Positions 35,720 to 36,486 of a stretch of DNA of 64,000 bases are shown one piece after another. The stretch lies in assembly GCA_964469335.1 (NCBI GenBank), contig CAYXYK010000002.1:125549-189548 (forward strand). The letters are read 5' to 3'. Every line of letters begins with the position of its first letter. Position 1 is the stretch's first letter. A program made the position numbers and the translations under genes. This stretch comes from an uncultured Candidatus Saccharibacteria bacterium. GTDB lineage: Bacteria > Patescibacteriota > Minisyncoccia > Phycocordibacterales > UBA6899. The notes below the pieces were generated by a model that worked only from the letters and a program-made list of their open reading frames with translations, had not been told where the DNA came from and made no database searches.

Positions 35720-35757
35720 CGAAATGAAACTCCCCGCAGGCCGAAGCGTGCGGGGAG
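35720..35757 (-). terminator. 9-bp hairpin CTCCCCGCA/TGCGGGGAG with a T-rich tail on the minus strand
   Basis: On the minus strand it is followed by TTTCATTTCG. It sits downstream of minus-strand peptide ORF 1 and directly after the stop of the plus-strand voltage-sensor ORF. Confidence 0.4.
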
Positions 35758-35845
35758 AGTTACTACAGAGAACAGCGATCTGATGGCGAGGACTACCTCA
35801 GTTGCGAAGCATTGCCTCGCTCATCAATCTCGCGCCGGCCGGGCG

Positions 35846-35962
35846 TCAGCGCGCGGCGTGGCCGAAGGTCATGGTCGTGCCGGCGCCCACCGCGACGGTG
35901 TTGGCCAGGCCGAAATCGAGCAGCGTGGTTTGCCTGTGCGAAGTGATCGTGTGTCGTCGCAT
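35846..35962 (-). CDS. 38-aa small ORF (MRRHTITSHRQTTLLDFGLANTVAVGAGTTMTFGHAAR) in a GC-rich island
   Basis: AGGAGA RBS 4 nt upstream of the ATG. Local GC far above the genome background. Downstream hairpin. Not in the ORF track (below the 60-aa cutoff). Confidence 0.3.
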   Translation of the reverse strand: MRRHTITSHRQTTLLDFGLANTVAVGAGTTMTFGHAAR

Positions 35963-36046
35963 GGTTTCTCCTGAAAGAGCGGCGTAGTCGAAGGTGAGCT
36001 ACGATAAATATCCTACATACTGCTAAAAATCCGTCAAGACAAGATA

Positions 36047-36078
36047 TAAAAAAACGGAGCCCCACACGAGGTGGGGCT
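36047..36078 (-). terminator. Rho-independent terminator on the minus strand (AGCCCCAC/GTGGGGCT stem followed by TTTTTTT)
   Basis: Read from the sequence, immediately downstream of minus-strand peptide ORF 2. Confidence 0.6.
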
Positions 36079-36114
36079 ACGGCAGGGTCACGGGGACTCT
36101 GCAGCCGGCGCCGT

Positions 36115-36231
36115 TCAGTCGGGAACGGCGGCGGGGTCGGCGGCGGTGTTGATGGCGGTCACGGCCTTCTTGGCGGCAGCGGCTGCAGCGTGCGCGGCAT
36201 GGATGACGGCGGTGCTTTGTCTTCGTCGCAT
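36115..36231 (-). CDS. 38-aa Ala-rich small ORF (MRRRQSTAVIHAAHAAAAAAKKAVTAINTAADPAAVPD) in a GC-rich island
   Basis: GGAGA RBS 5 nt upstream of the ATG. Same length and the same MRR start as the neighbouring small ORF. Followed by a clean intrinsic terminator. Confidence 0.3.
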   Translation of the reverse strand: MRRRQSTAVIHAAHAAAAAAKKAVTAINTAADPAAVPD

Positions 36232-36486
36232 GGGAGTCTCCGGAAGGTACAGGCGCGATCACGACGATCGCATATTCATGATAGCGTGCACACGATTTTT
36301 GTAAGGGGATTTTTCAGGAATCAGGAATTGGTCACGAATTACTAAGCGTATTCGAAGCAAAGCATTTCATCTGCTAAGTGTTCTCGGCTATAGCTCGCAA
36401 GCTCGCACGTCGTTTCGCGACATTGCAGTGCTTTTCGATTACTGACAGGAAGTGTCTCAGGGCACTTCCTGTATTCCGACATATAT

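Follow-up and report, generated by a model that had tools for sequence, protein, structure and literature searches.

In a 64,000-nucleotide (nt) stretch of contig CAYXYK010000002.1 (assembly GCA_964469335.1) from an uncultured Candidatus Saccharibacteria bacterium, which we refer to as the window, we examined a GC-rich island of ~0.55 kb (35,725-36,275) with a minus-strand cassette of two 38-codon open reading frames (ORFs), ORF2 and ORF1. Sequence and conservation show that the cassette comprises two independent expression units (TU2 and TU1) whose frames have been maintained, and that it is accessory and exchanged between lineages. With moderate confidence, we interpret it as a moron-like accessory element that spreads horizontally and consists of two autonomous genes for small proteins. 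It is an orphan pair of small ORFs (sORFs) within a broad known class, that of autonomously expressed accessory small-protein genes, and not a recognizable new system.

Distribution of the cassette

We found the same arrangement (tRNA-Pro, unit 2, unit 1 and a convergent voltage-sensor-like gene) in five lineages of one Patescibacteria clade, the window included. The cassette is present in Logan assemblies (L001, L021 and L022; 82% nt identity to the window over 4.9 kb), in eight JGI contigs and one ENA contig with identical islands (L012-L018 and L025-L028; 98.8% identity to the window over 12.7 kb), and in the metagenome-assembled genome (MAG) GFS_12994 (L002; ~70% identity); a 788-bp ENA contig (L024) covers the end of unit 1 only. 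Two other relatives lack it: in L003, a 66-aa gene is joined directly to the NuoB-like gene, and in L009, tRNA-Pro is followed by an unrelated 116-aa membrane gene and then by the NuoB-like gene. Since L003 and L009 have the same flanking genes without the cassette, we conclude that the cassette is accessory. Moreover, an assembly artifact or contamination is ruled out, since the same context recurs in independent NCBI MAG, JGI, ENA and Logan assemblies.

Several contigs end at this locus. Among the JGI contigs, L015 ends at the last base of ORF2, while L027 and L028 begin between the minigenes, 73 and 15 nt ahead of ORF1; the L001 and L021 contigs end inside tRNA-Pro. These breaks hint that the inter-unit region is polymorphic among strains, which confuses assemblers.

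Maintenance of the reading frames

We aligned the four full-length alleles (window, L001, L012 and L002), three of which are closely similar. All four retain the promoter hexamers, with spacers that diverge; also retained are the 5' stem-loops, the GGAGA of the Shine-Dalgarno (SD) sequence, the ATG-CGA-CGA start, both TGA stops and the terminator stems. A preliminary description of this DNA had proposed conservation of the frames across relatives as a test of the peptides; start codon, SD and stop are indeed kept in the four alleles, and every indel within the ORFs is in frame. Specifically, in a nucleotide-only MAFFT alignment, all six gap runs in the ORFs were multiples of three (3, 6, 3, 3, 3 and 3 nt), compared to one of ten in the non-coding parts of the island (2, 1, 1, 3, 7, 1, 5, 1, 8 and 1 nt; Fisher P = 0.0009). 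An additional 3-nt indel near the ORF1 C-terminus in L024 is likewise in frame, and across alleles the ORFs range from 36 to 40 codons. Counts of promoter-like and terminator-like sites were no higher than in shuffled sequence; it is because the feature is conserved in other genomes, and not on account of its signals or frames by themselves, that we consider it beyond chance.

Codon periodicity and initiation signals point in the same direction. In every lineage, GC content at the third codon position (GC3) of ORF1 was 0.80-0.87, compared to 0.45-0.58 at the first and second positions (P ≤ 0.003), and this periodicity held in L002 despite differences at 42 of 111 aligned positions. In L002, an extra codon lies between ATG and CGACGA (M-T-R-R-R), such that the Arg motif is kept as protein but the shared nucleotide motif is broken. 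Genes led by an SD are a minority in this organism (an SD-like motif precedes 4 of the 39 long ORFs of the window), but both minigenes keep GGAGA in all lineages. From the in-frame indels, the GC3 periodicity of ORF1, the codon insertion in L002 and the retention of an SD that is unusual here, we infer that both frames are very probably translated.

Exchange of alleles between lineages

Island and genome differ in their relationships. Between the window and L001, the island is 96.2% identical, compared to 82% for the genome and 52-87% for the flanks (60-nt windows); identity is 95-100% over most of the length of the island and 83% in one 60-nt window of ORF1. Relative to L012, which is conspecific with the window (98.8% across the genome), the island is 94.5% identical, with 13 substitutions in 234 ORF nucleotides. 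The islands of L001 and L012 are 92.6% identical to each other, and that of L002 is only 64-66% identical to those of the other lineages. Since base-by-base purifying selection cannot explain the near-identity with L001 when L012 tolerates 13 substitutions, recent horizontal exchange is the most economical explanation. On these comparisons, the history of the cassette is decoupled from that of the genome.

The alleles are clearly mosaic. Between 36275 and 35967, the window shares 22 informative sites with L001 and 2 with L012; from 35966 to 35916, which runs from the SD spacer to ORF1 codon 15, it shares none with L001 and 15 with L012; and from 35915 to 35725, it shares 8 and 1, respectively. 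We considered that a diversity-generating retroelement might account for the variable ORF1 patch but rejected this idea, since neither a reverse transcriptase nor a template repeat is nearby, the patch is N-terminal, and the mosaicism of the alleles explains it. High GC3 also persists in L002, with a genome of 44% GC; this argues either that codon choice is under selection (e.g., for very high expression) or that the island is younger than the divergence of its hosts.

Composition of the island

In 200-nt windows, GC content was 0.62-0.65 from 35,700 to 36,300, compared to 0.35-0.55 in the flanks. In 150-nt windows, it peaked at 0.72 within 35,726-36,275, ~4.5 standard deviations above the 64-kb mean (0.495, standard deviation 0.05), and this was the sole segment of the 64 kb that exceeded 0.65. 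The codon usage of the minigenes is equally deviant, with GC3 of 0.76-0.87 compared to 0.56 ± 0.07 in host genes, and with C at the third position in 55-63% of codons compared to 20-40%, both far beyond the host range. These profiles bear out the GC-rich island of the preliminary description, and its idea of a compositionally foreign patch is supported by the accessory status of the cassette, by a history decoupled from the genome, and by the two close relatives that lack it. A search of the window for further copies of the island or for GGAGA-N-ATG-CGACGA start motifs recovered only the two minigenes.

We also noted a second GC-rich patch (up to 0.64) at 51084-52178 on the plus strand, where a gene with an SLT domain (lytic transglycosylase) has GC3 of 0.69; nearly all other long ORFs are on the minus strand. 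Three tRNA-Ala genes flank this patch (50545-50618, 50820-50893 and 52631-52704), and it may be another acquired segment.

Organization of the two expression units

Each ORF is framed by its own expression signals (Table 1). A consensus scan of 35,000-37,000 yielded exactly two promoter-like sites, of near-consensus sigma-70 type and each with a 16-nt spacer in the window; the two are minus-strand sites and stand where the units require them. The TU2 promoter retains its hexamers in L012, where the spacer has been replaced, and is kept in L002 as well; in the TU1 promoter, the -35 box is invariant in four lineages and the -10 box keeps TAnnAT. Both 5' stem-loops lie ~7 nt past the -10 box, at the inferred transcript start, and the palindrome of TU2 could be either a 5' stem-loop or an operator. 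The TU1 terminator has undergone compensatory changes in L002 and L024. The terminator-block sequence is CCTGCCGTAGCCCCACCTCG. As had been described, a ribosome-binding site precedes each ATG-CGA-CGA by 4-5 nt and a hairpin follows each ORF, that of TU2 with a run of seven T residues; the palindrome also exists, but lies 2 nt from where it had been placed.

Table 1. Positions of the cassette features and their immediate neighbors in the window
Feature	Coordinates	Strand	Remarks
tRNA-Pro(CGG)	36518..36589	-	ARAGORN, Rfam; bounds the cassette's variable region upstream
TU2 promoter	36278..36305	-	-35 CTTACA (TTTACA in other lineages), spacer 16-17 nt, -10 TATCAT (TACTAT in L002); consensus scan
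GCGATC-N5-GATCGC palindrome	36255..36271	-	Inferred 5' end of the TU2 transcript; 6/6 pairs invariant in 4 lineages, loop varies T/A
SD of ORF2, GGAGA	36237..36241	-	5 nt before ATG; kept in all lineages
ORF2	36115..36231	-	38 aa, MRRRQSTAVIHAAHAAAAAAKKAVTAINTAADPAAVPD; homologues found, indels in frame
Hairpin over the ORF2 stop codon	36105..36134	-	CCGCCGCCGTTC/GAACGGCGCCGG; inverted repeat, in the 4-lineage consensus fold, some pairs broken in L002
TU2 intrinsic terminator	36049..36078	-	AGCCCCAC/GTGGGGCT + T7; 8-bp G+C stem, invariant in 4 lineages
TU1 promoter	36010..36037	-	-35 TTGACG, spacer 16-17 nt, -10 TAGGAT (TACGAT or TAATAT elsewhere)
TU1 5' stem-loop, CGTAG...CTACG	35983..36003	-	Folds; stem conserved, loop length and sequence differ in L002
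SD of ORF1, AGGAGA	35967..35972	-	4 nt before ATG
ORF1	35846..35962	-	38 aa, MRRHTITSHRQTTLLDFGLANTVAVGAGTTMTFGHAAR; fastest-evolving part of the cassette, alleles 38-40 aa
TU1 long hairpin in the 3' untranslated region	35777..35829	-	Consensus fold of 5 lineages
TU1 terminator hairpin and U-rich tail	35722..35757	-	Hairpin 35730-35757; inverted repeat, bidirectional, common to the convergent plus-strand gene
122-aa S1-S4-only voltage-sensor-like membrane protein	35351..35719	+	Pfam Ion_trans positions 5-109 of 241

As a separate observation on gene starts in this clade, many genes in L012, L013 and L019 lack an SD and instead start 6-10 nt past a TATAAT-like box (for instance at 1026 and 1820 in L013, and at 1238-2365, 2381, 3316 and 4001 in L019), which suggests that leaderless mRNAs may be widespread in the clade.

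The two peptides and database searches

Both minus-strand ORFs and their 38-aa translations agree with those first proposed, but the peptides are unlikely to be paralogous, as had been supposed. BLASTP between them gave no alignment even at E ≤ 100, and thus the term is unsupported; the two units have in common only their initiation region, with an exact 11-nt repeat (TCGTCGCATGG), and their length. Conserved residues comprise the N-terminal MRR of both peptides, the end of ORF2 (ADPAAVPD) and two FG motifs in ORF1; the middle of ORF2 is variable and its C-terminus is the conserved part. AlphaFold predicts a single α-helix for residues 2-30 of ORF2 (predicted local distance difference test, pLDDT, 85), followed by the ADPAAVPD tail, and a low-confidence structure for ORF1 (pLDDT 63). 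Each peptide has a net charge of +2 to +3. The diagnostic tryptic fragment of ORF2 is AVTAINTAADPAAVPD, its C-terminal dodecapeptide is INTAADPAAVPD, and the fragment for ORF1 is QTTLLDFGLANTVAVGAGTTMTFGHAAR.

On the Kyte-Doolittle scale, we found no segment of transmembrane-grade hydrophobicity in either peptide: the maximum over 15 residues was 1.1-1.7, with charged residues inside the segment, compared to 2.34 for a bona fide signal peptide encoded in this genome. The suggestion of toxin-like peptides is at odds with this lack of a hydrophobic helix. An antifreeze-like reading of the Ala-rich helix was also rejected, as the helix has neither an 11-residue Thr periodicity nor an export signal, and so were the frames on the opposite strand, which are open but have no start and SD, run through the terminator, and match no family.

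Database searches returned little beyond the clade itself. Searches of Pfam, NCBIfam, PHROGs and PADLOC with both peptides and their L002 homologues found nothing credible; we dismissed as marginal a PADLOC match of ORF1 to PD-T4-6 (E = 0.016, 12.9 bits). A word-indexed search of 5.8 billion clustered proteins recovered only alleles of the same clade, and an exhaustive phmmer search with ORF1 of 1.84 billion representatives recovered only the L012 allele and two long repeat proteins, which we judged spurious because their scores add up a weak likeness of 20 residues across 5-9 repeats. Viral and metagenome contig collections, scanned for DNA and peptide patterns, gave no matches, nor did blastn against phage and plasmid records. 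Rfam 15 gave no match to the island, either at E ≤ 10 or, for the window, L002 and L019, at gathering thresholds; the only matches were tRNAs and a look-alike composed of a tRNA and a terminator.

Genomic neighborhood

Upstream of the cassette, the minus strand carries xseA (with an HRDC domain), xseB, and genes for a DUF2207 protein and a 66-aa membrane protein, and then tRNA-Pro(CGG). Downstream lie the convergent gene for the 122-aa protein and a NuoB-like/Mrp-like operon; relatives of the NuoB-like protein occur in MAGs labeled Paceibacterota, Parcubacteria, Moranbacteria and others, which makes a Patescibacteria affiliation of the organism most likely. The window and L001 have the same tRNA-Pro gene (100% identity), a likely recombination anchor. 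The region downstream of it is indel-rich, and in L002 the last 22 nt of the tRNA gene are repeated ~150 nt downstream (4022-4043 and 4193-4214), like a remnant of an attachment (att) site; the cassette does not lie between the two copies. The indels and the duplicate in L002 both fit a hotspot of integration or recombination. A tRNA-targeting integrative element is not supported, since no integrase was found among the neighbors of the cassette in the window or in L012/L013, and the window has no second copy of the tRNA-Pro 3' end.

The 122-aa gene is convergent with TU1 and adjoins the cassette in all five lineages that bear the island. It had been taken for a channel gene cut after S4. Its homologues are equally short in all relatives (115-140 aa), and thus we regard it as a standalone voltage-sensor-like protein and not as the product of truncation by the island. 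It is the most diverged gene of the neighborhood (52-75% nt identity to L001). More distant homologues (in L019 and L029) have no island beside them, and a functional link between the cassette and this gene would be conjecture.

Other features of this neighborhood deserve mention. Between tRNA-Pro and the cassette (36445-36517, minus strand), a terminator-like hairpin (36494-36507) lies downstream of the tRNA, GTCGGAATAC at 36471-36480 is the reverse complement of the 3' acceptor strand of tRNA-Pro, and a perfect 10-bp hairpin follows (36445-36472); L001 shares this block, as L012 does for the most part, and in Rfam it gave only weak, below-threshold look-alikes. The large subunit of exonuclease VII (38096-39706, minus strand) has an N-terminal HRDC domain before the OB fold and ExoVII_L, as it does in L012/L013. 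Finally, a cluster of NuoB-like, NuoH-like and multiple Mrp-antiporter-like genes (28029-35238, minus strand) is present in this small genome of the Candidate Phyla Radiation (CPR); it encodes a complex of either the group-4-hydrogenase-related or the Mrp type, and those of its NuoB-like and antiporter-like genes that we checked have homologues in L002-L009.

Selection on the frames and alternative explanations

A number of observations count against the interpretation of two autonomous small-protein genes. At 65% GC, a frame of 38 codons is open by chance with a probability of ~0.38 per frame (a hand estimate), and two antisense frames in the island are open as well. Nei-Gojobori dN/dS was at least 1 in all comparisons, compared to 0.03 for the neighboring NuoB-like gene as a control. 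Relative to L012, the two ORFs of the window have 12 nonsynonymous changes and 1 synonymous change (4 and 0 in ORF2; dN/dS 0.10/0.03 in ORF1); relative to L002, dN/dS is 0.63/0.44 for ORF2 and 0.61/0.32 for ORF1, and differences are spread nearly evenly over codon positions. These values come from only four full-length alleles, three of them close, with an uncertain alignment of ORF1 in L002, and dN/dS over 38 codons is noisy. Since dN/dS is at least 1, no signal of constraint appears to speak for the importance of the residues themselves. Among close alleles, identity is 98-99% in the untranslated regions (UTRs) compared to 85-97% in the ORFs, and in the five-lineage consensus fold of the TU1 3' UTR and terminator, 7 of the 38 pairs persist although both of their bases have changed; they lie in the long hairpin (35777-35829) and the terminator. 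Furthermore, expression of the peptides is predicted from sequence signals, and no partner, receptor, transporter or immunity gene is identifiable; that the peptides act through an interface with a fast-changing partner is a conjecture about function in which we have low confidence. Our reading is that selection acts on the frames without conserving the residues; either real peptides are under diversifying or relaxed selection, or the act of translation is itself selected.

The main alternative is that the RNAs themselves matter, as small regulatory RNAs that are dual-function or coupled to translation; we consider this possible but rather unlikely. The active parts would be the 5' hairpins, the hairpin at the ORF2 stop and the structured 3' UTR of TU1, with ORFs that are incidental or serve only the travel of the ribosome; in the latter version, a ribosome is needed at a fixed stop codon, such that the frame is kept while residues vary. 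Each unit does have the classic layout of a small RNA gene (promoter, ~220-280 nt, terminator), with GC above the genome level as is typical of structured RNAs, and the slower evolution of the UTRs (the TU1 3' UTR being the most conserved part among the three close alleles), the seven pairs maintained by two-sided changes, the dN/dS values with their even spread over codon positions, and the nucleotide-level conservation of the last nine codons of ORF2 and its stop context would all be expected. Dual-function small RNAs that encode a peptide are well known, such as SgrS/SgrT, RNAIII/δ-hemolysin and SR1/SR1P. The units resemble them in a transcript of ~200-300 nt with a promoter, an intrinsic terminator and a short ORF with an SD, and in conserved, structured untranslated parts that evolve more slowly than the ORF. 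However, the units belong to no Rfam family, even at the permissive threshold, and their overall fold is not significantly stable: whole transcripts fold hardly better than shuffled sequence does (z = -1.3 and -2.2), and while consensus folding backs the terminal hairpins, many interior pairs are broken in L002. The in-frame indels, the GC3 periodicity and the codon insertion in L002 would also be unexpected for a pure non-coding RNA, although they are compatible with the translation-coupled variant.

The remaining alternatives fare worse. An inert relic, that is, foreign high-GC DNA that decays without present function after integration beside tRNA-Pro, would account for the outlying GC and codon usage, for dN/dS near 1, for the indel-rich region and for the att-like duplicate in L002, but we think it very unlikely: promoter hexamers, SD, start, stop and terminators are kept even though islands are only 64-66% identical, ORF indels are in frame, high GC3 is maintained in a 44%-GC genome, and across a species boundary of 82% average nucleotide identity the island stays 95-100% identical for the greater part, dropping to 83% in a single 60-nt window of ORF1, with no integrase evident nearby and no phage, plasmid or viral matches. 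We give barely any credence to exported propeptides of the signal or pheromone type, or to precursors of ribosomally synthesized and post-translationally modified peptides (RiPPs). Phr/CSF-type exported propeptides are known from Firmicutes, and ORF2 is like them in its ~40 aa, a basic N-region, an Ala-rich core, a possible cleavage site (VTA/IAA) and a conserved 12-residue C-terminal peptide, the putative "mature" ends of which align exactly between the window and L002; in addition, the alleles are incongruent with the species tree: different species have them in common and members of one species differ, as is seen at pherotype loci. In contrast, the core of ORF2 (1.1-1.5, compared to the 2.34 above) is too weakly hydrophobic for a Sec signal, the layout of ORF1 does not fit, and there is no adjacent rap-like receptor gene. 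Nor did we find a modification enzyme, peptidase-ABC exporter, receptor or kinase within ~10 kb in any lineage, which also speaks against the earlier suggestion of modified-peptide precursors. The pattern of a conserved leader and variable core that marks RiPPs is reversed in ORF2, with its conserved C-terminus, and Pfam and NCBIfam gave no RiPP or bacteriocin family. Finally, it seems most improbable that the units are small-ORF toxins checked by mRNA folding or antisense RNA, as in type I toxin-antitoxin systems. A predicted pairing of the SD and start with a pyrimidine tract in the TU1 3' UTR recalls hok-type mRNAs, but it is partly broken in L002; the peptides have no transmembrane-grade segment, and the L002 allele of ORF1 is charged throughout; the consensus scan found no promoter-like plus-strand site in 35000-37000, although a weak promoter could escape it; no complementarity or inverted repeat links the two units; and the only PADLOC match was the marginal one noted above.

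Relation to known systems

Phage morons are defined by their own promoter and terminator, a deviant GC content and horizontal spread (PMC3594210). The cassette shares these traits: each unit has its own promoter and terminator, with stems and hexamers kept in four lineages; its GC content (0.62-0.72 compared to 0.495) is unlike that of neighboring genes; and the units are present or absent among close relatives and spread horizontally. Unlike morons, however, it lies outside any phage or prophage, flanked by cellular housekeeping genes (xseAB, DUF2207, tRNA-Pro and the Mrp/NuoB-like operon), has no viral or phage matches, and consists of two units in tandem with products of only ~38 aa. By this comparison, we would call it moron-like in behavior, yet not classifiable as a moron because of its location.

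Other small-gene systems are less similar. The phenol-soluble modulins of staphylococci are leaderless, small amphipathic peptides. Tandem small genes for unmodified, A/G/T/V/N-rich, helical peptides of ~20-45 residues are common to both, given the helix predicted for ORF2, but the peptides of the cassette match no family, their amphipathicity is moderate (hydrophobic moment up to 0.38), no dedicated exporter is nearby, and they are encoded in separate transcription units and not in one operon. A leader-peptide attenuator is a poor fit as well: the TU2 terminator leads to the conserved promoter of TU1, and the TU1 terminator leads to the convergent gene. Relatives without the island keep the downstream operon, and although a hairpin is present at the ORF2 stop, we did not find a conserved alternative pairing with the TU2 terminator.

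A possible mechanism and its significance

If the cassette consists of two autonomous small-protein genes, as we favor, the units would be transcribed as RNAs of ~223 and 282 nt, which their terminal hairpins would stabilize. Such a stabilizing role of 5' stem-loops and intrinsic terminators is established. These RNAs would be translated efficiently into two unrelated peptides, of which peptide 2, by prediction, forms one Ala-rich helix with an Arg-rich N-terminus and a conserved, acidic, proline-containing tail. Selection holds the frames open and in register without conserving the residues, and alleles are recombined between species. The peptides might bind a fast-changing partner in the manner of moron-type accessory genes; this partner could belong to a phage, host or competitor, or be some variable component of the cell.

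More speculatively, and in our estimate quite unlikely, the two genes would form a transferable module, and its rapidly evolving peptides would serve a strain-specific interaction of these ultra-small bacteria, which are probably attached to hosts. The interaction could be recognition of kin or partner, phage defense, or an effect on the neighboring voltage-sensor-like protein, which evolves fast as well; the cassette would then stay polymorphic through diversifying selection and cross-species exchange. In a second variant of this kind, the units would be translation-coupled riboregulators, in which only translation to the fixed stop codon matters.

The small proteins of CPR bacteria have hardly been explored and usually escape annotation pipelines. 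The present locus offers a clean, testable case, with orphan minigenes that have full expression signals, frames that are kept while residues change fast, and alleles that cross a species boundary; it also illustrates that translated sORFs can be recognized by their in-frame indels and codon periodicity where dN/dS would suggest "non-coding." If the peptides are effectors, they would provide a handle on the dealings of these reduced organisms with phages, with hosts and with each other.

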